From NCBI GenBank assembly GCA_964545575.1, contig CAZJFL010000001.1, forward strand, positions 69,878-133,877: a DNA stretch of 64,000 nucleotides, in the 5' to 3' direction. Of this stretch, positions 1,274 through 35,467 are shown one piece after another (position 1 is the stretch's first letter; the number at the start of each line of letters is the position of its first letter). The notes under the pieces are model-generated. The model searched no databases. It saw only the letters and a list, made by a program, of their open reading frames with translations, and was not told where the DNA came from. Made by a program: the position numbers and the translations under genes. The DNA comes from an uncultured Planctomycetales bacterium (GTDB lineage Bacteria > Omnitrophota > Gorgyraeia > Gygaellales > Profunditerraquicolaceae).

Positions 1274-2608
1274 TTATAAATCCTTACTCTTTAAACCCAG
1301 CTCTGCGATTGCCTGCTCAGGGCTACTGGTATATTTACGGCAGAACCTGGTGACCTGCTGTATGTCGGTAATGCCCTTTTCTGAAAGCGCATCCACCAAT
1401 CTCACCCTTCTCTTTAATTCCTCGACCAGCTCTCTGGAAGATCTGCCGCTTATCTGGGAGAGCCTGTCCCTGTAGGTGCCGCCCCCTCCCGGCTCAAGGA
1501 ATTCGTGCTTGGGCAAATCATAAGACCAGAGAGAGCCCAATAAAACCGTGTTTTTTTCCATCCCGCCGGTCTCAGCCAGCTCTCCTACCACGCGCTTGAT
1601 CTGGCCGTCTACTTTAAACCGGCGCATAACCACAAAGACATCGATTAAGTTTATCAGCGCGTTGGGTATATTCATCGGTTCGTTTTCCAGGCGCATTACC
1701 GTCTCTCTGGGTGTGGATGCGTGCAGGGTCCCCATGCAATACTTGCCGATATTCATGGCGGTCATCAAATCCTGGGCTTCTCTGCCCCTGACCTCTCCCA
1801 CAATCACTCTATCCGGGCGCATGCGTAAAGAGTTCTTGACTAAATCCGCCAGCGTCGTTTCCTCATCACTCTCCAGGCGCGAACAATTCTCTTCCAAATC
1901 GGTATTTAACTCTAAGGTGTCCTCAATAACCACTATCCGTTCTTTTGCGGGGATAAAACTAAAAAGCGCGTTTAATAAAGTGGTCTTGCCCGAACCCGGG
2001 CCTCCGGAGATGATAATATTTGCCGGCTTGACATTAAGGCCTTCTACGTAAAGCCAAAGCTGCGCGGCTAATTCAGGGTTAAGCGCGCCGTTATTCACCA
2101 GCTCGATGATGCTTAAGGGTTTTTCTTTGGCGCGGGTGATGGTAATCTGCGGCCCGAAGGGGGAATACACGATGTTGGCTCTTCCCTTTACTTCGGCAAG
2201 CTCGACGTTATTTATCTTTTTGATATCTTTCCTCCCCGAGAAAAAAACCAGCTTTTTGATAAAGAGGTCCAACTCTTCGCGGGAAGAAAACTTTTTATCC
2301 GTAGTGATCATGCCTACCCTGGTCTTGTGCACATAGATAGGAGAAAGATAGTTGATCATAATATCTTCCACTTCCGGGTCGGAAAGAAACTCCTCGATGA
2401 TCCCGTAGGAAAGAAACTCGTTAAAAAACTGCTCTAACTCCAGCCCCTTGCATTTATGGATAAACCTCTGGCAGACGGGAGAATTATAGTATTCCAAAAA
2501 AACCTGAAAGATGACCTCACGTTTGCAGGTCAGGTCTTGCAGCAGAAAAAGCTTACCCAATAGCTTATCCAGTATATCGTTTTCAATAGCGATTCTTTCT
2601 TTATCCAT
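1274..2608 (-). CDS. Type II/IV secretion system ATPase (TadA/CpaF/FlaI-like)
   Basis: 444 aa with Walker A GGPGSGKTTLLNALFSF, Asp box VIEDTLEL and His box GTLHAS, the architecture of the GspE/VirB11/FlaI family. Its stop lies 2 nt upstream of the dnaX start, consistent with co-transcription. Confidence 0.8.
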   Translation of the reverse strand: MDKERIAIENDILDKLLGKLFLLQDLTCKREVIFQVFLEYYNSPVCQRFIHKCKGLELEQFFNEFLSYGIIEEFLSDPEVEDIMINYLSPIYVHKTRVGMITTDKKFSSREELDLFIKKLVFFSGRKDIKKINNVELAEVKGRANIVYSPFGPQITITRAKEKPLSIIELVNNGALNPELAAQLWLYVEGLNVKPANIIISGGPGSGKTTLLNALFSFIPAKERIVVIEDTLELNTDLEENCSRLESDEETTLADLVKNSLRMRPDRVIVGEVRGREAQDLMTAMNIGKYCMGTLHASTPRETVMRLENEPMNIPNALINLIDVFVVMRRFKVDGQIKRVVGELAETGGMEKNTVLLGSLWSYDLPKHEFLEPGGGGTYRDRLSQISGRSSRELVEELKRRVRLVDALSEKGITDIQQVTRFCRKYTSSPEQAIAELGLKSKDL

Positions 2609-2622
2609 ATTTTCTCCTTATT

Positions 2623-2686
2623 GGGCATGCACTCCGCTCGCTAAACCGCTTGTCGCGGTTTGCCCTTCGGGCCGCTCGCTTGAGTG
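2623..2686 (-). ncRNA. Candidate structured RNA element, copy A, next to tRNA-Ser(GCT)
   Basis: GCACTC-CGCTCGCT-[hairpin AAACCGC/GCGGTTT]-[GCCC-UUCG-GGGC]-CGCTCGCT-GAGTGC. It shares its architecture with the copy at 6590-6646 but shows compensatory changes in the stems. Strand of function is uncertain. Confidence 0.4.
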
Positions 2687-2721
2687 CCGAAAAAATTTTG
2701 TTTGTCTCAAAATTTTTTCGG
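2687..2721 (-). terminator. Perfect AT-rich hairpin abutting and overlapping the tRNA-Ser(GCT) 3' end
   Basis: CCGAAAAAATTTTG-tttgtctc-AAAATTTTTTCGG, a 13-bp stem. A similar hairpin lies downstream of tRNA-Ser(TGA). Confidence 0.4.
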
Positions 2722-2808
2722 AGAGGCAGGGATTCGAACCCTGGGGGCCAGTTACCCAGCCCAATTGCTTAGCAGGCAACTCCGTTAAGCCAGCTCCGGC
2801 ACCTCTCC
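2719..2808 (-). tRNA. tRNA-Ser(GCU), class II with long variable arm
   Basis: Manual fold of GGAGAGGTGCCGGAGCTGGCTTAACGGAGTTGCCTGCTAAGCAAT...GGTTCGAATCCCTGCCTCTCCG gives a 7-bp acceptor stem, 3-bp D stem, anticodon loop CUGCUAA and a T arm GGTTCGAATCC. CCA is not encoded. Confidence 0.85.
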
Positions 2809-2877
2809 AAATTCAATGAGCGCACAATTTACGGAACGAAGTGAATGTAAATTGTATGCGCGAATTAATCCCGCACG

Positions 2878-3333
2878 CTATTTATTACGTTTGCGGGAAA
2901 AAAATTCCGTTAATAAAGAGCTGCATTCCTTTTCTAAAATCCCGCCCTTTACTTTAATGCGATGATTTAATTTCTTATGATTTATAATATTCACTACAGA
3001 GCCGCATGCGCCTGTTTTGGGGTCCTTTGCGCCGTAATACAGGTTCTTAATGCGCGCCAGAACAGAAGCACCGGCGCACATACTGCACGGTTCAATTGTA
3101 ACATAAAGACAGCATCCGGACAACCATTTGCTCCCCAGGTAATTAGTCGCAGAAGTCAAAGTCAACATCTCGGCGTGTGCGGTAGGATCCTTCAGGGATT
3201 CAACTTGATTATATCCGCGGGCGATAATCCTATCTTTATAAACTACCACCGCTCCGACGGGAACTTCATCTTTTTCAAAGGCTTTACGGGCTTCCTTTAA
3301 AGCCTCCTGCATAAAACGGGTATGTTTTAGCAT
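2878..3333 (-). CDS. tadA: tRNA-specific adenosine(34) deaminase
   Basis: 151 aa with the CDA-fold zinc motifs HAEMLTL and IEPCSMCAGA. Its size matches TadA, and it sits immediately downstream of its substrate tRNA-Arg(ACG). Confidence 0.85.
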   Translation of the reverse strand: MLKHTRFMQEALKEARKAFEKDEVPVGAVVVYKDRIIARGYNQVESLKDPTAHAEMLTLTSATNYLGSKWLSGCCLYVTIEPCSMCAGASVLARIKNLYYGAKDPKTGACGSVVNIINHKKLNHRIKVKGGILEKECSSLLTEFFSRKRNK

Positions 3334-3345
3334 TGCCTAAATAAG

Positions 3346-3419
3346 TGCGCCTGGCTGGGATCGAACCAGCAACAACCAGCTCCGTAGGCTGATGCTCTAT
3401 CCAATTGAGCTACAGGCGC
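3346..3419 (-). tRNA. tRNA-Arg(ACG)
   Basis: GCGCCTGTAGCTCAATTGGATAGAGCATCAGCCTACGGAGCTGG...GGTTCGATCCCAGCCAGGCGCA, with anticodon loop CUACGGA. This is the A34-to-I editing substrate of TadA. Confidence 0.85.
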
Positions 3420-3465
3420 GTTAATCTTTTTGCCTCCTGTAGCGAATCCGCCAACGTTCTGTGGC

Positions 3466-3481
3466 AGAGAGCTACAGGCGC
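3466..3481 (-). repeat. 15-16 nt exact copy of the tRNA-Arg(ACG) 5' end (gagctacaggcgcgt), about 47 nt upstream of the tRNA
   Basis: An exact match to tRNA positions 1-14 plus one flanking base, sitting in an imperfect hairpin CCTGTAGC...GCTACAGG. Confidence 0.6.
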
Positions 3482-3486
3482 GTATC

Positions 3487-3798
3487 TTAAAGCTGAAGGA
3501 TAATTTCAAAGAGGAACTTCATATCCAGAATCGCAAGCAAGATCAAAATAGGTCCTGCTATCAGGTGGTAATTAAATAACAGGTTATCTAGCCAGGTTAT
3601 ATTGGCGTCCAAGGGGACAAGCGCAGGCGTATGAAACACCTCCAGTTTTAAGCGCTTGTCTATCTTATAATAAATCTCCAGCGAGAAAGTAAAAATCATG
3701 CTTATGATACAGATTAATCCGTAAGTAACGAAAACTAAGGCGCTTAAAAACCACCCCAATTCATCGACAGTCATGAAATTGATATTGGTATTAAACAT
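3487..3798 (-). CDS. Small hydrophobic membrane protein, hypothetical
   Basis: 103-aa ORF with two predicted TM stretches (LGWFLSALVFVTYGLICIISMIF; LIAGPILILLAILDM). No recognisable family. Confidence 0.35.
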   Translation of the reverse strand: MFNTNINFMTVDELGWFLSALVFVTYGLICIISMIFTFSLEIYYKIDKRLKLEVFHTPALVPLDANITWLDNLLFNYHLIAGPILILLAILDMKFLFEIILQL

Positions 3799-3856
3799 TT
3801 TTGCGTTCCTTTCTCGTCACTACGCCCATTGTCGGACAAATAATCCTAGTACTAAT

Positions 3857-3993
<137 letters not shown>

Positions 3994-4003
3994 CAGATAT
4001 GAA

Positions 4004-5005
4004 TTAGACTTTTGAATTCTTATAAGACCTAAATCTCTCTATATGTTTACTATTATGACTACCGATTATTTGCATATATTTGTTAACTTCTTTTCTATCA
4101 TAAATGAAAATATGCCTTCCTCCGGCAGTTTTGCAATTTAAACTAAACCTCAGAAACATTTTATACGCCGAATTCAAAAGAGCTTTTGAATGACTCGTAA
4201 AACACAAACCCATATGCCTGTATTTAATTCCCTTGGTAGTGTGATTATGGAAATAAATACCTCCATCGGTATCCATTAAGCCCCTCAGGCAACTTTTTAC
4301 AAACTCGTTATCCTTAAAAATCCATTGCGGCACATCTGTGCCATTTAACATCTTGTTCCCTTTCTTCATACCGCAATTTATCAGAAAAAGAACGAGGTTT
4401 TTACTCGATACTGTAACAACAATGGTATTTTTATCCCTGACTGTGACAGTAGAGGTTATCTTAAATAAATCAGTGACAATTTTTTTGATGAAATAGGCAT
4501 AATCCCTGTCAGTTTTATTATTATAGATTCTGACTTGATGTTCATTTATTGAGCCATCGCCTAAAAGAATCCCAATAAATTCTGCTAACAAAGAAGATCT
4601 TCGAGGATAAATAATATTTTTCCTTAACTTAAAACCTACCTTTTTAGCGAATTCCGGGTCATTCCGAAATTTCAAAGCAGAGACCATACCCCCTTTTCTT
4701 CTGCCTTCTACTGTACCAAGACGCCCGTATAATTCATTCCGCCTTAAAGCCCCCAACCTTGCCGCGCTCTTAATATTCCAATCATCCGGGAGAACTTCTA
4801 TTCTTGGAACAGAAATTCTTAGTTTCTTCTTTAATGATTGAAGAGAAACGTAATTCATTTGATATTTATCCCTTCGCCAGTCAAATAAAGTTCGCTTATC
4901 CACCTTGCAAATTCCGGCTAAATTATGCCAATCAAGATTATTTTCTTTCTTAATCTTCCCCAGAAAACTTCTCTGTTTATTTTCTAGAAATTTTACTCTT
5001 GGCAT
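4004..5005 (-). CDS. Double-motif LAGLIDADG homing endonuclease, free-standing
   Basis: Two LAGLIDADG motifs (LAEFIGILLGDGSI and LRGLMDTDGGIYF) about 100 aa apart, plus an N-terminal basic HTH-like region. The true start is MPRVKF (ATG at 5003-5005). The track ORF 4004..5191 is artificially extended by reading through tRNA-Ser(CGA) and the 59-bp repeat. Confidence 0.75.
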   Translation of the reverse strand: MPRVKFLENKQRSFLGKIKKENNLDWHNLAGICKVDKRTLFDWRRDKYQMNYVSLQSLKKKLRISVPRIEVLPDDWNIKSAARLGALRRNELYGRLGTVEGRRKGGMVSALKFRNDPEFAKKVGFKLRKNIIYPRRSSLLAEFIGILLGDGSINEHQVRIYNNKTDRDYAYFIKKIVTDLFKITSTVTVRDKNTIVVTVSSKNLVLFLINCGMKKGNKMLNGTDVPQWIFKDNEFVKSCLRGLMDTDGGIYFHNHTTKGIKYRHMGLCFTSHSKALLNSAYKMFLRFSLNCKTAGGRHIFIYDRKEVNKYMQIIGSHNSKHIERFRSYKNSKV

Positions 5006-5048
5006 AATATAATTCCAACCGCTCTGCCACCTCTCCAAGAATTTTATT

Positions 5049-5107
5049 GTATGGCGGCGCCGAAGCCAGAGGCTTCGGCATCCGCCATGTTTTTCAAGAG
5101 AAAAACA
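5049..5107 (-). repeat. 59-bp perfect direct repeat, copy 2
   Basis: Identical to 3857-3915 and positioned immediately 3' of tRNA-Ser(CGA). Confidence 0.85.
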
Positions 5108-5196
5108 TGGCGGAGAGTGGAGGATTTGAACCTCCGTACCTCTTACGAGGTAACGCGCTTTCGAGGCGCGCGCTTTCAACCACTCAGCCAACTCTC
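5107..5196 (-). tRNA. tRNA-Ser(CGA), class II
   Basis: GGAGAGTTGGCTGAGTGGTTGAAAGCGCGCGCCTCGAAAGCGCG-[variable arm]-GGAGGTTCAAATCCTCCACTCTCCGCCA, with anticodon loop CUCGAAA. CCA is encoded. Confidence 0.85.
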
Positions 5197-5381
5197 CAAA
5201 ATTTAAACGGACCCGTTTTGTTTACTTAAGCCGCTTCTCGAAGACCGCAAGCGCCGAATTCATATTGTCGGGGCTTCGATGAAATCCCCCATAGTCGGCA
5301 TTATCATCTTCAATCGCGCAGTCTGCAATACCAGCGTATTTACATATCCATTCGACCGCTTCACGCATGCCGTCGATACCA

Positions 5382-6461
5382 TCACCCTCCGGGTTCGGGT
5401 CCTGTTTTTACATAGGTTCTTTTGCCAAATGAATTACTACGGCCATCAAGACAAGTTCCGCAAACCGGTAAGCTTTTTCTATCCGCATGTATTTTTCTTC
5501 TAAGATTTTGGTATTTTCCATTTCTCCAGATATCCCGTAAATCGTCTCGGAAAATATTTCCCATTATATGAAAAGATGCTAGATCGCTACAGCAAGGAGT
5601 TACATCGCCGTTAGAATTGATGACCGTGTAATACTCGATAGAACTACAGGAATTCGGTACTGCGACCTCGTTTACAAAAAGTCCGTCTTTTTCAACGTAG
5701 TTTCTATTAAACGAGGTATCGCGGGGAAAAATCTCTTTTGCTACTTTCTGAAAGTCAGAGCCATCAAAACCGATACCGACCGCTTTTTCCCTATATACAT
5801 CAGCATGCAGTTTTCCGGACATCTCTAACATCATTTGGCGTTGATGTTCGTTATGTTTCATGACAATAAATTGTAATTCGACTATCGGCTTTCTAGATTT
5901 CAGCTCTTTTTTTGCTTGATAGATTAATTCAAATCCTTTTATAACTGCGCTAAAATCAGCTCCTTTTCGGTATTTGTTATAGGTTTCGTGATCCGCGCCA
6001 TCAAGGCAGATAATTAAGTAATATAGGCCGCTTTTAACAACATATTTACAATATTCGATATCCTTAAAAAAAGTACCGTTCGTACATATGCGGATTCTAA
6101 TTCCAGATTCAGTGGCGTATCTAACCATTTGTAGAATATCTTTATGAAGGAAAGGTTCGCCAAGATTCCATAAATCTATATGGGCAATATAAGATCTAAC
6201 TTCATCAACGATTTTTTTAAATTCCTGCAGGCTCATTGATCTTGCTAGCCGATTTAATTTATTCGTACCTGTGGGGCATGCGATACAGCGGAGGTTACAA
6301 AGATTTGTCGGCTCTATAACAAGATAAAAAGGCAGAGGGGAAAATAGCGACTTTCCCGTTAATCCTTTTAATAATTTATATAAAATAATGTCAAAACGTC
6401 TTTTCTTGATTATTAAACAAAGCGCTTCTATTTTTTCAGTGAGGTATTTCATGAAATTCAT
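5382..6461 (-). CDS. Radical SAM protein with C-terminal SPASM/twitch domain
   Basis: CNLRCIACP (CxxxCxxC) in the N-terminal part and a Cys-rich C-terminal region (TPCCSDLASFH...CGTCLDG). A 47-codon continuation in the +1 frame immediately after the stop suggests a possible frameshift or a small downstream ORF. Confidence 0.8.
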   Translation of the reverse strand: MNFMKYLTEKIEALCLIIKKRRFDIILYKLLKGLTGKSLFSPLPFYLVIEPTNLCNLRCIACPTGTNKLNRLARSMSLQEFKKIVDEVRSYIAHIDLWNLGEPFLHKDILQMVRYATESGIRIRICTNGTFFKDIEYCKYVVKSGLYYLIICLDGADHETYNKYRKGADFSAVIKGFELIYQAKKELKSRKPIVELQFIVMKHNEHQRQMMLEMSGKLHADVYREKAVGIGFDGSDFQKVAKEIFPRDTSFNRNYVEKDGLFVNEVAVPNSCSSIEYYTVINSNGDVTPCCSDLASFHIMGNIFRDDLRDIWRNGKYQNLRRKIHADRKSLPVCGTCLDGRSNSFGKRTYVKTGPEPGG

Positions 6462-6514
6462 TATTTTGTTTGAAAGTTTATTTCTATTATTTTACCATTA
6501 TTTCGGTAGCCCTA

Positions 6515-6556
6515 CGATTTCGAGGCGCGCGCTTTCAACCACTCAGCCAACTTTCC
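6515..6556 (-). repeat. Diverged copy (40/42) of the 5' half of tRNA-Ser(CGA), positions 1 to about 42, upstream of the radical-SAM gene
   Basis: ggaaagttggctgagtggttgaaagcgcgcgcctcgaaatcg versus tRNA ggagagttggctgagtggttgaaagcgcgcgcctcgaaagcg. Similarity ends after the anticodon loop. Confidence 0.75.
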
Positions 6557-6589
6557 AAAGCTATAAATTTTCCTTATCAGAATGTATTG

Positions 6590-6646
6590 TGGTGCTAGCA
6601 CCACGCTCGCTATTTTGCTTGTTGCAAAATTACGCTCGCTTTGGTG
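6590..6646 (-). ncRNA. Candidate structured RNA element, copy B, next to tRNA-Ser(TGA)
   Basis: GGTGC...CGCTCGCT-[hairpin ATTTTGC/GCAAAAT]-CGCTCGCT-TTGGTGCC. It has the same architecture as 2623-2686, with covarying stems. Confidence 0.4.
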
Positions 6647-6681
6647 CCGAAAATTTTTTCTTTATCAGAAAAAATTTTCGG
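6647..6681 (-). terminator. AT-rich perfect hairpin abutting the tRNA-Ser(TGA) 3' end
   Basis: CCGAAAATTTTTTC-tttatcag-AAAAAATTTTCGG. Confidence 0.4.
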
Positions 6682-6765
6682 AGGCGGAAGGATTCGAACC
6701 CTCGATGGGCGTAAACCCACAACGGTTTTCAAGACCGCCGCATTCAACCGCTCTGCCACGCCTCC
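6679..6765 (-). tRNA. tRNA-Ser(TGA), class II
   Basis: GGAGGCGTGGCAGAGCGGTTGAATGCGGCGGTCTTGAAAACCGT-[variable arm]-GAGGGTTCGAATCCTTCCGCCTCCG, with anticodon loop CUUGAAA. Confidence 0.85.
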
Positions 6766-6770
6766 CTCTC

Positions 6771-7448
6771 TTACCTTAAAAATAATTGCCTAAAGATAAG
6801 GTAAAATATATCGCTTGCCGCCCGGAAAGAACCCGAATAAAAATTGACCAACGAAAACTCTTTAAAAATAAAGCTCAGGCCCAGCCCAAGCAACGCAATA
6901 TTAACCAGGTACAGGAAAGAAAAACCAAAGAGATAGTTGGCCTTTAAAAAATCCCCCTGCTTCAGGCGCAGAGATTTTGCGCTGAATACAAGGTGCAGGG
7001 CGATGCTAAAGCCAAAAAAGAAAATAAAATAATTTATTAGATCCGCCGATTTAAAAATAGCCGCGGCCGGCGCATAGAGGACAAACAGGATGATGGTATA
7101 GACGGGTAATAGATAGGGCGCGAATTTTACCAAGGGATGAAAAAACTTAAATATTGCCTCTACCAGCTTCTGCCCCCTGGAATAAACTGTTACCGGCTCC
7201 CAAAGAAACAGATAAACCGCAAGAAACGCGATAACACCGCCCCAAAAATACCACTGAAGTTTAAAATCTATAAGATCAAGCTCCTTGATAAAGGCAACCG
7301 ACAGTGAATAAACAAAAGGCAGCAGGCAAAGCCCCAGAATGAACTTTACGATGCCGAAAACGCGGCCGGAGAAACCGGACATTCTAGGCACGGGAGCGCT
7401 GATTTCCACTTTGGGAATTTCTTTTTTAAGGGATTCTTTCTTTTTCAC
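6771..7448 (-). CDS. Polytopic integral membrane protein, hypothetical
   Basis: 225 aa with about 6 hydrophobic helices. No recognisable motif. Confidence 0.5.
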   Translation of the reverse strand: MKKKESLKKEIPKVEISAPVPRMSGFSGRVFGIVKFILGLCLLPFVYSLSVAFIKELDLIDFKLQWYFWGGVIAFLAVYLFLWEPVTVYSRGQKLVEAIFKFFHPLVKFAPYLLPVYTIILFVLYAPAAAIFKSADLINYFIFFFGFSIALHLVFSAKSLRLKQGDFLKANYLFGFSFLYLVNIALLGLGLSFIFKEFSLVNFYSGSFRAASDIFYLIFRQLFLR

Positions 7449-8752: not shown

Positions 8753-10213
8753 CTATCCCTTAATAACGCACAATGGCCGCATACGACAGACGCGTTTGGA
8801 GATTCCTGCGCGATGCACCACATCTACTACGTCGTTAACATCCTTGTAGGCCTGGGGTGCTTCTTCTACGAGTGTTCCTCTACCTGAGGCCTTAACCATT
8901 ATACCCTTGGATTCCAATTCTTTCAATAAGGTAGCTTCATTTATCGACCTGCTTGCGGCGGTGCGGGATTTTAACCTGCCTGCGCCATGGCAGGTCGAAC
9001 CGAAAGTTTCTTCCATGGCTTTTTGGGTACCCACTAAGAGATAAGAATTTCTCCCCATATCTCCGGGTATAATCACCGGCTGGCCTATTTTTTTATACCT
9101 TTCAGGCAACGCCGGATGCCCCGGGCCAAAAGCGCGGGTGGCGCCTTTACGGTGGACGCAGAGCATTTTTTCTTTTCCTTCAATAGTATATTTTTCGATC
9201 TTGGCGATATTGTGCGCGACGTCGTAAATCAAGAACATCCCTAATTTCTGCCAAGAGATAGCGAATATTTTTTCAAAAACCTTACGGGTAAGATGCATTA
9301 AACACTGCCGGTTTGCCCAGGCATAGTTTGCCGCGCACTTCATCGCTCCCAGATACGCCTTACCTTCGGCAGAATTAACCGGTGCGCAGGCCAGCTGCCT
9401 GTCCGGGACATTGATCTGGTATTTCTCGAGGCAATGTACCATATCTCTGGTATAGTCCTCGCAAATCTGATAGCCCAATCCCCGTGAGCCGGAATGAATC
9501 ATCAGCGTAATCTGCCCAAGATTTAAACCTAATTCATCAGTTATATCCCTATCGTATAATTGATCGATGGCCTGCACTTCCAGGAAGTGATTCCCTGAAC
9601 CTAAGGTGCCGGACTGGGCCTTACCTCTTTCGTAAGCCCGCTGGGAGACCGTATCCGGATCAGCCCCCTGGATGGCGCCGTTCTCTTCAGTGCATTCCAG
9701 GTCATCTTCCGTGCCGTAGCCTTTTTCTACCGCCCACTTTGAACCTTTAAGTAAAATCTCCTTTTCTTCTCTGGCGCTTACCCTGATATCGCCTTTAGAG
9801 CCAACTCCTGCAGGAATATCATTAAATAAAGCGTAAACCAGGTCTTTTATTTTATCTTTTATATCTTCAAATTGAAGGTTGGTTTTAAGCATGCGCACGC
9901 CGCAATTTATGTCAAAACCGACCCCTCCGGGAGAAATTACGCCTCCGTTTTCGATATCGGTCGCCGCCACCCCTCCAATGGGAAAACCATAGCCCCAGTG
10001 GATATCGGGCATAGCCATTGATGCATTTACTATGCCGGGCAAAAACGCCACGTTAGCTACCTGCTCCGCTGCCTTATCCTGCCTGATATCTTTCAATAAT
10101 TTTTCATCGGCATAGATAATCCCGGGCACGCGCATCCCCCTTTTATAGCTTTTAGGTATCCGCCAGCGGAAATCGTCAATTTTCTCTAAAGGTACGGCCG
10201 GGTTTTCAGACAT
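8753..10213 (-). CDS. rtcB: RNA-splicing ligase RtcB (3'-phosphate/5'-OH RNA ligase)
   Basis: 486 aa matching the RtcB signature regions (MPDIHWGYGFPIGG, GFDINCGVRML, SGSRGLG, HNIAK, HRKGATRA). Confidence 0.95.
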   Translation of the reverse strand: MSENPAVPLEKIDDFRWRIPKSYKRGMRVPGIIYADEKLLKDIRQDKAAEQVANVAFLPGIVNASMAMPDIHWGYGFPIGGVAATDIENGGVISPGGVGFDINCGVRMLKTNLQFEDIKDKIKDLVYALFNDIPAGVGSKGDIRVSAREEKEILLKGSKWAVEKGYGTEDDLECTEENGAIQGADPDTVSQRAYERGKAQSGTLGSGNHFLEVQAIDQLYDRDITDELGLNLGQITLMIHSGSRGLGYQICEDYTRDMVHCLEKYQINVPDRQLACAPVNSAEGKAYLGAMKCAANYAWANRQCLMHLTRKVFEKIFAISWQKLGMFLIYDVAHNIAKIEKYTIEGKEKMLCVHRKGATRAFGPGHPALPERYKKIGQPVIIPGDMGRNSYLLVGTQKAMEETFGSTCHGAGRLKSRTAASRSINEATLLKELESKGIMVKASGRGTLVEEAPQAYKDVNDVVDVVHRAGISKRVCRMRPLCVIKG

Positions 10214-10622
10214 CCAAAATCACCTCTGCCTGCCAGCCGCCTGCCTTCTTTGCGATTTTTAATTGATGGTAAGTGGCGGCTTTTATCTCGGTGTTGACTT
10301 TATAGTTATTGATATTGCTTGCCACGGCAACTGCCTCCAGGCGCTTCTGGTTTATTTTTTTTATGCGTAAATCCTCAAAAATCAGGCCCTTAGCCGAAGA
10401 TAAAGATATTAATTCATTCAGCCAGTTAATCAGGAGCTCCTCTAGATTATCCGCTTCCTGGACTATCGCCAAATTATGCGGCTTTGTATTTTTAATTTTC
10501 TTTTTCTCTGCGATGATCTGGAATATGGCGAGGCCGGCGTTCCTGAACAGGTCTTTTAAAGAACCGCCTTTTACCCTGATGCCTATATCTGCGGTATGGT
10601 CGATAAGTTCGTATTTAACCAC
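10206..10622 (-). CDS. Archease (RtcB activator)
   Basis: 138 aa beginning MVKYELIDHTADIGIRVKG, the conserved archease N-terminal HTAD motif. It overlaps rtcB by 8 nt, consistent with an operon. Confidence 0.85.
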   Translation of the reverse strand: MVKYELIDHTADIGIRVKGGSLKDLFRNAGLAIFQIIAEKKKIKNTKPHNLAIVQEADNLEELLINWLNELISLSSAKGLIFEDLRIKKINQKRLEAVAVASNINNYKVNTEIKAATYHQLKIAKKAGGWQAEVILDV

Positions 10623-31734: not shown

Positions 31735-31853
31735 TAATGATCATGTGAATTAATGCACACGATGATTAGCAAAGCTAATCATCGTGTGTAAATTCAGGCA
31801 GAGACTTGCGTTCGCTCACGCTCCGCAAGTCTCGCCTTCATTTAATTATATCA

Positions 31854-33053
31854 CTAAATAGCCCTCTCTTTCAAGGGCTTAAAGGCATAGCCTGAATCTG
31901 CCCCGGGTAAAGCTGCCACGGGTTCGGTGAGCATAAAATCACGCTTTTCAATCCAGGCTTTCAATTCCTGCGCGATCTCCCGCGCCTTGGAATAACTGGA
32001 GAGGTTTCCGGTAGGGATCTCCTTGCCCTGCACCTTGATTTTACCGGATTTTAACTGGCTGTAACTAACCTCGGCTAAACTACCCGGAATCATCTGGGGA
32101 TAACTCTGGCTGTAATCTACTACCTGAGCATAAATCTCCTCGTCTTTGGCTGCTGCGTATTTAACCGTCTCTTCATCTAATATAGGTATGGGAACGCCAA
32201 TACCCACGGTCAGGGTTACGCCGTAACCTAACATACTCGTCCCCACCAGCCATTCGGGTTTCATCTGCTTTAAGTCTCCGATTACTGCCAGTGTCCCGGC
32301 AGGGGCTTGGGGGATACCGTTATCCGTCCTCTTTACTCCCGGATTATGCTGGGTGCCGTGCCAGGCGACATACCCGATACCTCCGCCTAACCAGATCTTG
32401 GTACCCACTCCGATAGTCTTGTAATTTGGGTCCTTTAACAAAGGGGAAAGCTGGCCGGCAGAGCAATAATTAGCATTACCCAGATGCGGCTTTAATACGC
32501 CCATATAAGTATAAATTATTTTATCCGAAAGATTCACCGCCACATTATAGTTCTGATAGCAGTTACGGATATTAAAAAGTACGGCCTCATTCAAATCCTT
32601 GATATTGATCAGCGTTTCCAGTTTCTTGCGCGGATAACAGTCTGTGCCGTAAGCACTCGCCTCCAGGCGGATATCCTTGCCGGCAACCAACTCCTGAATT
32701 ACGTGCCCGCCGCCGTATTTGAATTCTCCCGGGAAGACTTTATTGCGCGGGTCATCGTCGGGCATGGCAGTTGCGCCCAGATAAAAATCCATGGCCGCAA
32801 AACCGGTATAAACCGGCACATCGTTTAGTTTACATATTCCGCCGCCTAATTTTATTCGAGGGCGAGAGTGGCCGATATTAAAATAAGCGCCGGATGAACA
32901 CATCGGCCCGAAAGTTCCGGTAGTGACCACGTCTACTTCCTCTGCCGCCTTAGCCGAGCCTTTTTTAGCCACTAGGTCAATGATTTCTTCCGCCGTAACT
33001 ATCACGGCTTGGCCTTTTTTAATCTTCTCATTAATCTCTTTAATCGTCCTCAT
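31854..33053 (-). CDS. COG1900/DUF39 homocysteine-biosynthesis protein (MA1821-like)
   Basis: 399 aa with an N-terminal VDVVTTGTFGPMCSSGA region, characteristic of DUF39 sulfide-incorporating enzymes. Confidence 0.8.
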   Translation of the reverse strand: MRTIKEINEKIKKGQAVIVTAEEIIDLVAKKGSAKAAEEVDVVTTGTFGPMCSSGAYFNIGHSRPRIKLGGGICKLNDVPVYTGFAAMDFYLGATAMPDDDPRNKVFPGEFKYGGGHVIQELVAGKDIRLEASAYGTDCYPRKKLETLINIKDLNEAVLFNIRNCYQNYNVAVNLSDKIIYTYMGVLKPHLGNANYCSAGQLSPLLKDPNYKTIGVGTKIWLGGGIGYVAWHGTQHNPGVKRTDNGIPQAPAGTLAVIGDLKQMKPEWLVGTSMLGYGVTLTVGIGVPIPILDEETVKYAAAKDEEIYAQVVDYSQSYPQMIPGSLAEVSYSQLKSGKIKVQGKEIPTGNLSSYSKAREIAQELKAWIEKRDFMLTEPVAALPGADSGYAFKPLKERAI

Positions 33054-35287: not shown

Positions 35288-35359
35288 TTTAGTCTCCTCC
35301 CTTAACCCTTAATAAATAGGAAACCCTTATGCCAAATACATAAGGGTTATACACATTCA

Positions 35360-35455
35360 CTCCTCCTTTTCCTACGCTGGTATTATCCAGATCAGGTTAT
35401 CAGGGTCACCCCGCTTAAGCGGGGACTCTCAGGCCGTTATCACGACCTCCCCATA
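35360..35455 (-). promoter_or_regulatory. TPP (THI-box) riboswitch in the thi4 leader
   Basis: On the minus strand: GGGGUGACCCUGAUAACCUGAUCUGGAUAAUACCAGCGUAGGAA plus an upstream CUGAGAG, the two conserved THI-element blocks. Confidence 0.75.
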
Positions 35456-35467
35456 ATCTTATTTATT

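Follow-up and report, generated by a model that had tools for sequence, protein, structure and literature searches.

The window analyzed here, a 64,000-nucleotide stretch of DNA, carries two copies of a structured element of about 100 bases that belongs to an uncatalogued family found across many genomes of the Omnitrophota, an uncultivated phylum whose members are mostly ultra-small. Individual tRNA genes gain and lose the element, and its tandem, truncated, mosaic and optional copies show the behavior of a repeat family, not that of an indispensable signal. Selection on its fold is evident from the covariation of its stems, from the pair that it keeps with the tRNA discriminator and from the conservation of two internal sequence blocks. 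Tentatively, and with somewhat less than even confidence, we read it as a structured repeat specific to tRNA flanks, passively transcribed as a self-folding trailer or spacer with a putative function.

Two look-alike loci, at positions 2623 to 2721 next to tRNA-Ser(GCT) (copy A) and 6590 to 6681 next to tRNA-Ser(TGA) (copy B), had been singled out by an earlier reading of the letters alone (the sequence-only reading), and both are indeed present. The outer stem and inner hairpin, as that reading had it, and also the AT-rich hairpin differ in sequence between the copies with pairing kept, and the AT-rich hairpin overlaps the tRNA 3' end, starting with the last tRNA nucleotides. All parts of both copies, like the tRNAs that they follow, lie on the minus strand. 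In copy A, C72 and G73 of tRNA-Ser(GCT) (2718 to 2809; identified by ARAGORN, by the Rfam tRNA model at 51.6 bits and by its fold) are the opening bases of the first hairpin, hp1 (2688 to 2720). This is a perfect 13-bp A/T-tract hairpin, CCGAAAAAAUUUUG-AGACAAA-CAAAAUUUUUUCGG, with a GACAA loop core, which starts at the tRNA 3' end and is seen both in the predicted fold and in the family alignment A3, where its pairs covary. The rod that follows (2629 to 2687; predicted fold, 89.2 bits with the covariance model) is of a three-way subtype that alignment A3 also contains from loci L177, L194, L228 and L229. Its outer stem joins GCACUC (2682 to 2687) with GAGUGC (2629 to 2634) and encloses a bulged A (2681), the 5' block AGCGAGCG (2673 to 2680), a side hairpin (2662 to 2672), the inner hairpin AAACCGC-GACAA-GCGGUUU (2643 to 2661) and the 3' block AGCGAGCG (2635 to 2642). 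The side hairpin, taken earlier for a UUCG tetraloop hairpin, is in fact GCCC-GAA-GGGC, 11 nucleotides with a 3-nucleotide loop. An ATPase gene starts 20 nucleotides past this rod.

Copy B follows tRNA-Ser(TGA) (6679 to 6765; ARAGORN, Rfam and fold), the 3' end of which is part of its hp1 (6648 to 6680), a perfect 14-bp hairpin, CGAAAAUUUUUUCU-GAUAA-AGAAAAAAUUUUCG. Its rod (6598 to 6647; predicted fold, 98.5 bits) consists of an outer stem joining GCACCA (6642 to 6647) with UGGUGC (6598 to 6603), a bulged A (6641), the 5' block (6633 to 6640), a UA spacer (6631 to 6632), the inner hairpin AUUUUGC-AACAA-GCAAAAU (6612 to 6630) and the 3' block (6604 to 6611). The inner-hairpin sequence recurs, with GACAA or GATAA in place of the AACAA loop, in L128, L143, L147, L149, L174, L198, L206, L220 and L268. 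A degenerate third hairpin after copy B, UUCUGAUAAGGAA (6570 to 6582, minus strand), is what remains of the GACAA-loop hairpin frequently found behind the rod, which in other genomes is the seed of tandem copies; in 23 of 82 copies, the 90 nucleotides downstream contain such a hairpin or half of one.

The strand of the motif had to be revised. All seven tRNA genes that ARAGORN predicts in the window are on the minus strand, and the minus-strand folds (-43.2 and -37.5 kcal/mol; z scores of -6.2 and -7.5) are better than those of the plus strand (z scores of -4.1 and -5.8); the sense motif is therefore AGCGAGCG and not CGCUCGCU, as the sequence-only reading had written it. The pattern AGCGAGCG-N(5-35)-AGCGAGCG occurs twice in the window, compared with 0.01 expected occurrences, and none of 100 shuffles reached two. 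Hairpins with a GACAA loop are confined within the window to copies A and B, the only two copies that the covariance model finds there; a double hairpin at 31750 to 31854 scored 19.9 bits with this model, yet it is unrelated to the element. Contigs from the same population as the window are identical in sequence and thus offer no usable polymorphism. Elsewhere in the window, a TPP riboswitch (Rfam RF00059, 60.6 bits) was found at 35352 to 35463 on the minus strand. Among the same-population contigs L121, L122 and L123, a gene for a 90-amino-acid GIY-YIG endonuclease downstream of recR was present in two and absent from the third.

Defined on the tRNA-sense strand, the element thus consists of two parts, hp1 and then the rod, the latter laid out in both window copies as GCACNN, A, AGCGAGCG, a 7-bp hairpin with a GACAA or AACAA loop, AGCGAGCG and NNGUGC. 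The two blocks had been regarded as loose single-stranded motifs; in the predicted fold, they face and pair with each other, with the opposed strands giving, in order, A.G, G-C, C-G, G.A, A.G, G-C, C-G and G.A. The contacts are therewith G-C and C-G pairs, one tandem G.A/A.G and a single A.G at both ends, and with AGCGAGCG on both strands of this core, the folded helix is two-fold symmetric. Across the family, the rod comprises 21 to 22 stacked pairs with the tandem G.A at its center and a GACAA-type pentaloop as its cap (GNNAA in 82 of 84 copies). The hp1 hairpin is perfect and about 14 bp long (14 bp in 52 of 69 copies), and it begins at the tRNA discriminator, with C72 and the discriminator contributing to its first pairs; the pair with the tRNA's own discriminator is A-U in 37 copies, G-C in 16 and C-G in 5, and the discriminator is unpaired in 7. 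Three copies (L133, L210 and L238) have an inverted hp1 loop. When full precursors are folded, acceptor stem, hp1 and rod abut without linkers. Enlarged rods (L143, L159, L164, L167 and L180, and positions 5234 to 5700 of L267) contain a two-hairpin insert of about 55 nucleotides flanked by AAGC; the extra hairpins, AGCACCGC...GCGGUG and UAAUUCAC...GUGAAUUA, are conserved and are inserted at the AAGC of the 5' block.

The building blocks of this fold are familiar. 5'-GCGAGC-3' facing itself, as in the core of the element, is the classic context of a sheared tandem G.A (CGAG/CGAG), and the GACAA loops, closed by C-G, resemble GNRA-like pentaloops such as that of phage P22 boxB; both are generic RNA motifs and do not define a family. 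Unlike P22 boxB, the window copies have no boxA partner or N-type antitermination context, and we rejected a nut site or rRNA antiterminator on the grounds that no boxA-like sequence adjoins them despite the GACAA loops; a boxA-like sequence (GCTCTTTGACAA) was found in rRNA spacers only, well downstream of the element. A kink-turn was discarded as well, the tandem G.A forming a symmetric 2x2 loop between G-C pairs and the sole bulge being a single A.

To place the two copies in a family, as the sequence-only reading had suggested, genomes (one per species) were scanned with the exact pattern, which returned at least 118 stretches. About half of these were chance matches in G+C-rich genomes; the remaining stretches all came from Omnitrophota assemblies, some of them filed under other names. 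Among the matches listed, we counted 66 distinct family copies in 47 assemblies, so that at least 47 genomes contain it. A covariance model, likewise proposed earlier, was built from alignment A3 (67 sequences) and gave 90 matches on the Omnitrophota loci, including copies that the pattern had missed. In A3, 94.8% of stem cells are paired, compared with 34 to 45% when the partner strand is slid, and 391 cells are changed on both sides; in alignment A4, 95.2% are paired and both-side changes occur in 28 of 31 pairs. Overall, about 95% of stem cells are paired, compared with 34 to 54% in the slid controls. The claim that this is a conserved, covarying structured element and not a neutral duplication is thereby borne out, and of the findings named beforehand as fatal to it, a lack of further copies and a lack of covariation did not materialize.

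Compensation extends into the blocks. G-C pairs are replaced by C-G at L134:5709 and L218:3542; in L164, L169, L170 and L154 they have turned into A-U, and the outer stem of these copies differs as well, again with compensation. L267 has G-C for one A.G of the tandem, and two A-U pairs stand in for the tandem G.A at L129:4477. The blocks are kept between genomes with 16S rRNAs that are 88 to 91% identical. As a test of strand, stem G:T was compared with A:C (31 versus 20), a weak excess that leaves room for the fold to form in single-stranded DNA instead of RNA.

No Rfam 15 model matched over the elements at its gathering score in the window, nor at E values of up to 10 for positions 2400 to 7000, and none matched over the elements in 21 other loci. 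The parts of the literature that we consulted, among them the main Omnitrophota genome paper, did not describe the element. On viral contigs, a loose form of the motif gave chance matches among those listed, and the strict motif had no match. Of the scan matches outside the Omnitrophota, the covariance model retained a single one, a partial match on a Gemmatimonadaceae contig with no tRNA nearby. Two sequences with a related layout were seen: two tandem units of AGCGAGCG-hairpin-AGCGAGCG with a covarying hairpin on viral contig L026 (11279 to 11453) and a G+C-rich AGCGAGCG-hairpin-AGCGAGCG with a GCACUC/GAGUGC outer stem in Gemmatimonadaceae L156 (1327 to 1389, minus strand). Neither has a tRNA nearby or an Rfam match.

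Of 84 strong copies, 55 directly follow a tRNA (50) or tmRNA (5), and most of the others are tandem copies, lie at locus edges or follow tRNAs missed by ARAGORN, several with intron-like insertions. (A group I intron-like sequence, ...GAGAUAGUCCA..., interrupts such tRNAs upstream of elements in L220, L208, L167, L143 and L136.) The 50 tRNAs are Ala (three anticodons), Ser (three), Asp, Val, Cys, Tyr, Leu and Ile, and a tRNA-Lys with the element was found as well (see below), so the specific link to tRNA-Ser suspected at the outset does not exist. In four genomes, copies are located within 16S-23S operons, on one contig in the order 16S, element, tRNA-Ile, element, tRNA-Ala, element, 23S; another copy lies between tRNA-Tyr and tRNA-Gly. 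The next open reading frame, often less than 100 nucleotides away, is on the same strand in 56 of the 64 cases scored and convergent in 8. Neither the terminator scan nor the promoter scan flagged the elements, and no transposase, recombinase or other candidate mobilizing gene was seen next to any copy.

How dispensable the element is became apparent from 80 metagenome loci that were picked, blind to the element, by their neighbouring seryl-tRNA synthetase gene. The synteny of this gene, a membrane protein gene and the tRNA-Ser cluster is kept in these loci, in which the element occurs on 4 of 90 tRNAs: on none of 35 tRNA-Ser(TGA), so that copy B is a lineage-specific gain, on none of 5 tRNA-Ser(GCT) and on 1 of 10 tRNA-Lys(CTT), where the window lacks it. 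The notion of a required signal for tRNA processing or regulation is not supported by these counts; orthologous tRNAs are followed by this element, by a second trailer type, by other hairpins or by nothing, and given its absence from most equivalent tRNA genes in relatives, the element looks more akin to a tRNA-flank repeat or spacer than to a regulator. Truncated and mosaic copies are common. Tandem arrays, in which the unit starts in the hp1 loop, were found in L218 (three units after tmRNA), L213, L128 and L267, and mosaic arrays reach 500 nucleotides.

Several other features of these tRNA regions were recorded. The second trailer type follows tRNA-Ser(GGA) and tRNA-Ser(CGA) in the window (3845 to 3917 and 5041 to 5119, minus strand); its first hairpin, CCGCCAUGUUUUUC-UCUUG-AAAAACAUGGCGG, pairs with the tRNA end and is followed by the hairpin GCCGAAGCC-UCU-GGCUUCGGC. 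Its two window copies are identical over 55 nucleotides, and L128, L177, L209, L211, L253, L254, L259 and L325 contain relatives whose loop is AAUGU. A highly conserved stretch of about 120 nucleotides, CCAGUCGAGACGNCCCUGCGAUUU...GAGGUUCGAGCCGCAAAUUUUCAAAAAAUCUUUUUUGGGGCU, lies behind different tRNA-Ser genes in L253, L254, L267 and L282 and may be the edge of an integrated element. Over the TadA stop codon in the window (about 2822 to 2900, minus strand), we found a palindromic repeat, UCCCGCN...NGCGGGA, followed by the hairpin GCGCAUACAAUUUAC...GUAAAUUGUGCGC. This repeat is also present in L184 (2250 to 2950, minus strand), L155, L186, L150 and L161, and in other Omnitrophota it sits within tRNA genes (in the T loop or anticodon loop) with an intact copy of the tRNA alongside, so that an unusual intron or an insertion element may be involved. 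Finally, Archease and the RNA ligase RtcB are encoded directly upstream of seryl-tRNA synthetase in the window (8753 to 10622, minus strand), beside tRNA-Lys and tRNA-Arg. In several related metagenome loci, tRNA-Arg(TCG) and tRNA-Lys(CTT) lie upstream of the synthetase gene as well, and RtcB and Archease were confirmed in same-population contigs only.

Under the repeat reading that we favor, the element would spread from one tRNA 3' flank to another through local duplication and recombination, for which the repeated GACAA-loop hairpins and sites within the G.A block would provide the starting points, possibly with the aid of an enzyme, and it would be transcribed passively as a tRNA trailer or spacer. 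Its toleration may be due to a fold into two closed hairpins beginning right at the end of the tRNA, by which tRNA folding, processing by RNase P and RNase Z and downstream read-through would be left intact. If the host profits at all, for instance from an insulating spacer or from protection of the 5' end of the downstream RNA, this would be a secondary effect that it could do without. Discriminator pairing and the continuous covariation of the inner stem are not expected from plain copy-and-paste and indicate that the fold is under selection. A homodimeric protein acting on the folded strand most likely docks at the symmetric G.A helix and the conserved loop, given that such a protein would recognize a helix with two-fold symmetry. 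Our first guess, suggested by geometry and symmetry, is an RNase III-type double-strand RNA nuclease that would clear the trailer, for which the 21 to 22 stacked pairs of the rod and the 14 bp of hp1 would be of suitable size (about two turns of double-stranded RNA); alternatively, it might be an enzyme that copies the element. The conservation of the blocks between genomes as distant as those compared above fits purifying selection for a host function and counts against the repeat reading.

The main rival to the repeat reading holds that the element is a host-selected, cis-acting RNA module for processing and insulation in cotranscripts of tRNA with mRNA or rRNA, in which hp1 and rod would serve as specific nuclease sites parting the tRNA from downstream RNA, as a shield of the untranslated gap from Rho and as a fully paired, protective 5' end of the downstream RNA. 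The two differ in whether removal of the element would cost the host. Copies inside read-through operons, the close, codirectional genes downstream (56 of the 64 scored), an hp1 that begins at and covaries with the discriminator, the lack of single-stranded linkers and the sequence conservation between distant genomes all speak for such a module, as does a precedent in Escherichia coli, where RNase III cleaves a hairpin between the tRNA metY and the downstream mRNA in the metY-nusA-infB operon. Its absence from most orthologous tRNAs (present on 4 of 90), the other trailer types or none at the same tRNA in related genomes, and the common truncated and mosaic copies are hard to reconcile with this explanation, and the 500-nucleotide arrays, as in L267, are difficult to explain by function; we regard it as possible, if unlikely. 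Quite unlikely, in our view, is that the G.A rod and GACAA loops form the recognition site of a dedicated Omnitrophota system acting on tRNA 3' ends, be it a homodimeric nuclease or recombinase that would copy the element to new tRNA flanks with a hairpin incorporating the discriminator, or a lineage-specific marking or maturation of tRNA, tmRNA and rRNA precursors. A stable trans-acting RNA of about 100 nucleotides, released from tRNA or rRNA precursors and, for example, sequestering a protein that reads GACAA loops and the symmetric G.A helix, would resemble the small RNAs from tRNA 3' external transcribed spacers and would suit the highly transcribed settings (tRNA, tmRNA and rRNA operons), the compact, very stable fold and the conservation of block and loop sequence beyond the needs of pairing; however, copy number and position vary freely between relatives and degenerate copies are common, which makes this reading improbable.

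The other explanations fare worse. As a transcription terminator or attenuator for tRNA genes, hp1 does offer the layout of A-tract, stem and U-tract directly behind the tRNA, but the terminator scan passed it over, its U run lies within the stem and not after it, and the rod downstream of hp1 is still under strand-specific constraint. Copies between 16S, tRNA-Ile, tRNA-Ala and 23S and between tRNAs of one operon, as well as downstream genes that are codirectional and close, add to these objections; the many tRNA types, the tmRNA and the positions inside operons argue that the element is not a terminator, a role to which we assign a very low likelihood. An intrinsic terminator in the strict sense was rejected, as there is no G+C-rich stem with a direct U tract, the U run being part of the hp1 stem, and as copies are found inside four 16S-23S operons and between tRNA-Tyr and tRNA-Gly instead of at the ends of transcription units. 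Similarly remote is a small self-cleaving ribozyme that would form the tRNA 3' end or release the trailer: while conserved purine-rich internal loops and loops in a multihelix fold, together with RtcB and Archease encoded 6 to 8 kb away, would hint at such an activity and at cyclic-phosphate RNA ends, no ribozyme family matched even at E values of up to 10, L129:4477 has A-U pairs in place of the tandem G.A, the element is optional at orthologous tRNAs, and RtcB is linked to the seryl-tRNA synthetase and tRNA cluster generally, whether or not the element is present. The proposal, made by the sequence-only reading, that the element is the att or recognition site of a mobile element tied to the neighbouring LAGLIDADG homing endonuclease, or, in a variant, an attC-like site capturing cassettes, is close to refuted. 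In its favor, tRNA 5' fragments flank the radical-SAM and LAGLIDADG genes of the window, a methyltransferase gene lies between element copies in L128, and the bulged bases on one strand and the variable tip are somewhat attC-like. Yet none of about 70 other element-bearing loci has a LAGLIDADG relative, which removes the link to the endonuclease, both tRNAs flanking the endonuclease gene carry the different trailer type, a gene lies between copies at that one locus only, and no attC R-box consensus is visible and no integrase was seen in the loci.

Regarding the genes just mentioned, two tRNA 5' fragments lie on the minus strand of the window (about 6512 to 6553 and about 5013 to 5036). The radical-SAM/SPASM gene (5382 to 6461) is preceded by the first 40 or so nucleotides of tRNA-Ser(CGA), as far as the anticodon loop, and followed by an intact tRNA-Ser(CGA); a tRNA-Ser 5' end precedes the LAGLIDADG gene (4004 to 5005), which is followed by tRNA-Ser(GGA). 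No relative of either gene was found in the fetched Omnitrophota loci, including the syntenic L128, L134, L177 and L217, and both genes look like insertions into tRNA genes.

Among known repeats, the REP/BIME elements of Proteobacteria come close, being likewise short, imperfect palindromes in many copies, modular and tandem, located between cotranscribed genes and transcribed as hairpins, with conserved stem mismatches and a sporadic presence at orthologous sites. The element differs in being limited to the 3' flank of tRNA-like genes in a fixed orientation, in its two-hairpin unit, of which the first hairpin includes the tRNA end, and in having no GTAG-type 5' tetranucleotide (alignment A3 contains no GTAG-like invariant flank). 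Nor does it have the genome-wide extragenic spread of REP/BIME: there are two copies in 64 kb, both behind tRNAs, and nearly all of the 84 copies in other genomes are behind a tRNA or tmRNA or in tandem to such a copy. With Correia, ERIC, BOX, RUP and Rickettsia palindromic elements, it shares a size of about 100 nucleotides, modularity, nested or truncated copies and cotranscription with neighbouring genes; RNase III acts on Correia hairpins. From such miniature inverted-repeat elements, the element departs in several ways: its only terminal inverted repeat is the outer stem of just 6 to 7 bp, on which account we rejected membership, its conserved 8-nucleotide blocks are direct and not inverted repeats, and it has no clear target-site duplication and targets the tRNA 3' end instead of TA or random sites. 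Orthologous sites that lack the element are common. The candidate target duplications, CTCCACCA in L211 and the AAGC around the 55-nucleotide insert, could equally reflect pairing requirements.

Transcribed spacers 3' of tRNAs, external or internal, such as the RNase III site of E. coli metY and the hairpins of rRNA spacers, occupy the same positions, including the 16S-23S spacer, and similarly combine a double-stranded hairpin of RNase III size with a codirectional downstream gene; they are locus specific, whereas the element is an optional, multicopy family with conserved sequence and putative cleavage. Integron attC sites share a function-defining fold on one strand, bulges on one arm and a tip that ranges from a simple hairpin to a branched one. 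The element, in contrast, follows tRNAs instead of open reading frames and has no R-box or L-box consensus, cassette arrays or integrase, and attC membership was dismissed, the R and L boxes (RYYYAAC/GTTRRRY) being absent from A3 and a gene between copies being found in L128 only.

If the repeat reading is correct, the Omnitrophota possess a well-defined structured repeat for which Rfam has no entry, one that would mark the 3' ends of tRNA-like genes and be transcribed inside rRNA and tRNA operons. It would be of practical use as an annotation marker, would be a cause of assembly breaks around tRNA clusters and would show cleanly, in a natural setting, a G.A helix with two-fold symmetry. Two questions arise as well, namely which protein reads the symmetric helix and how the hairpin comes to include the discriminator of the preceding tRNA. 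Should a dedicated copying system exist, the element would represent a new kind of site-specific miniature mobile element.
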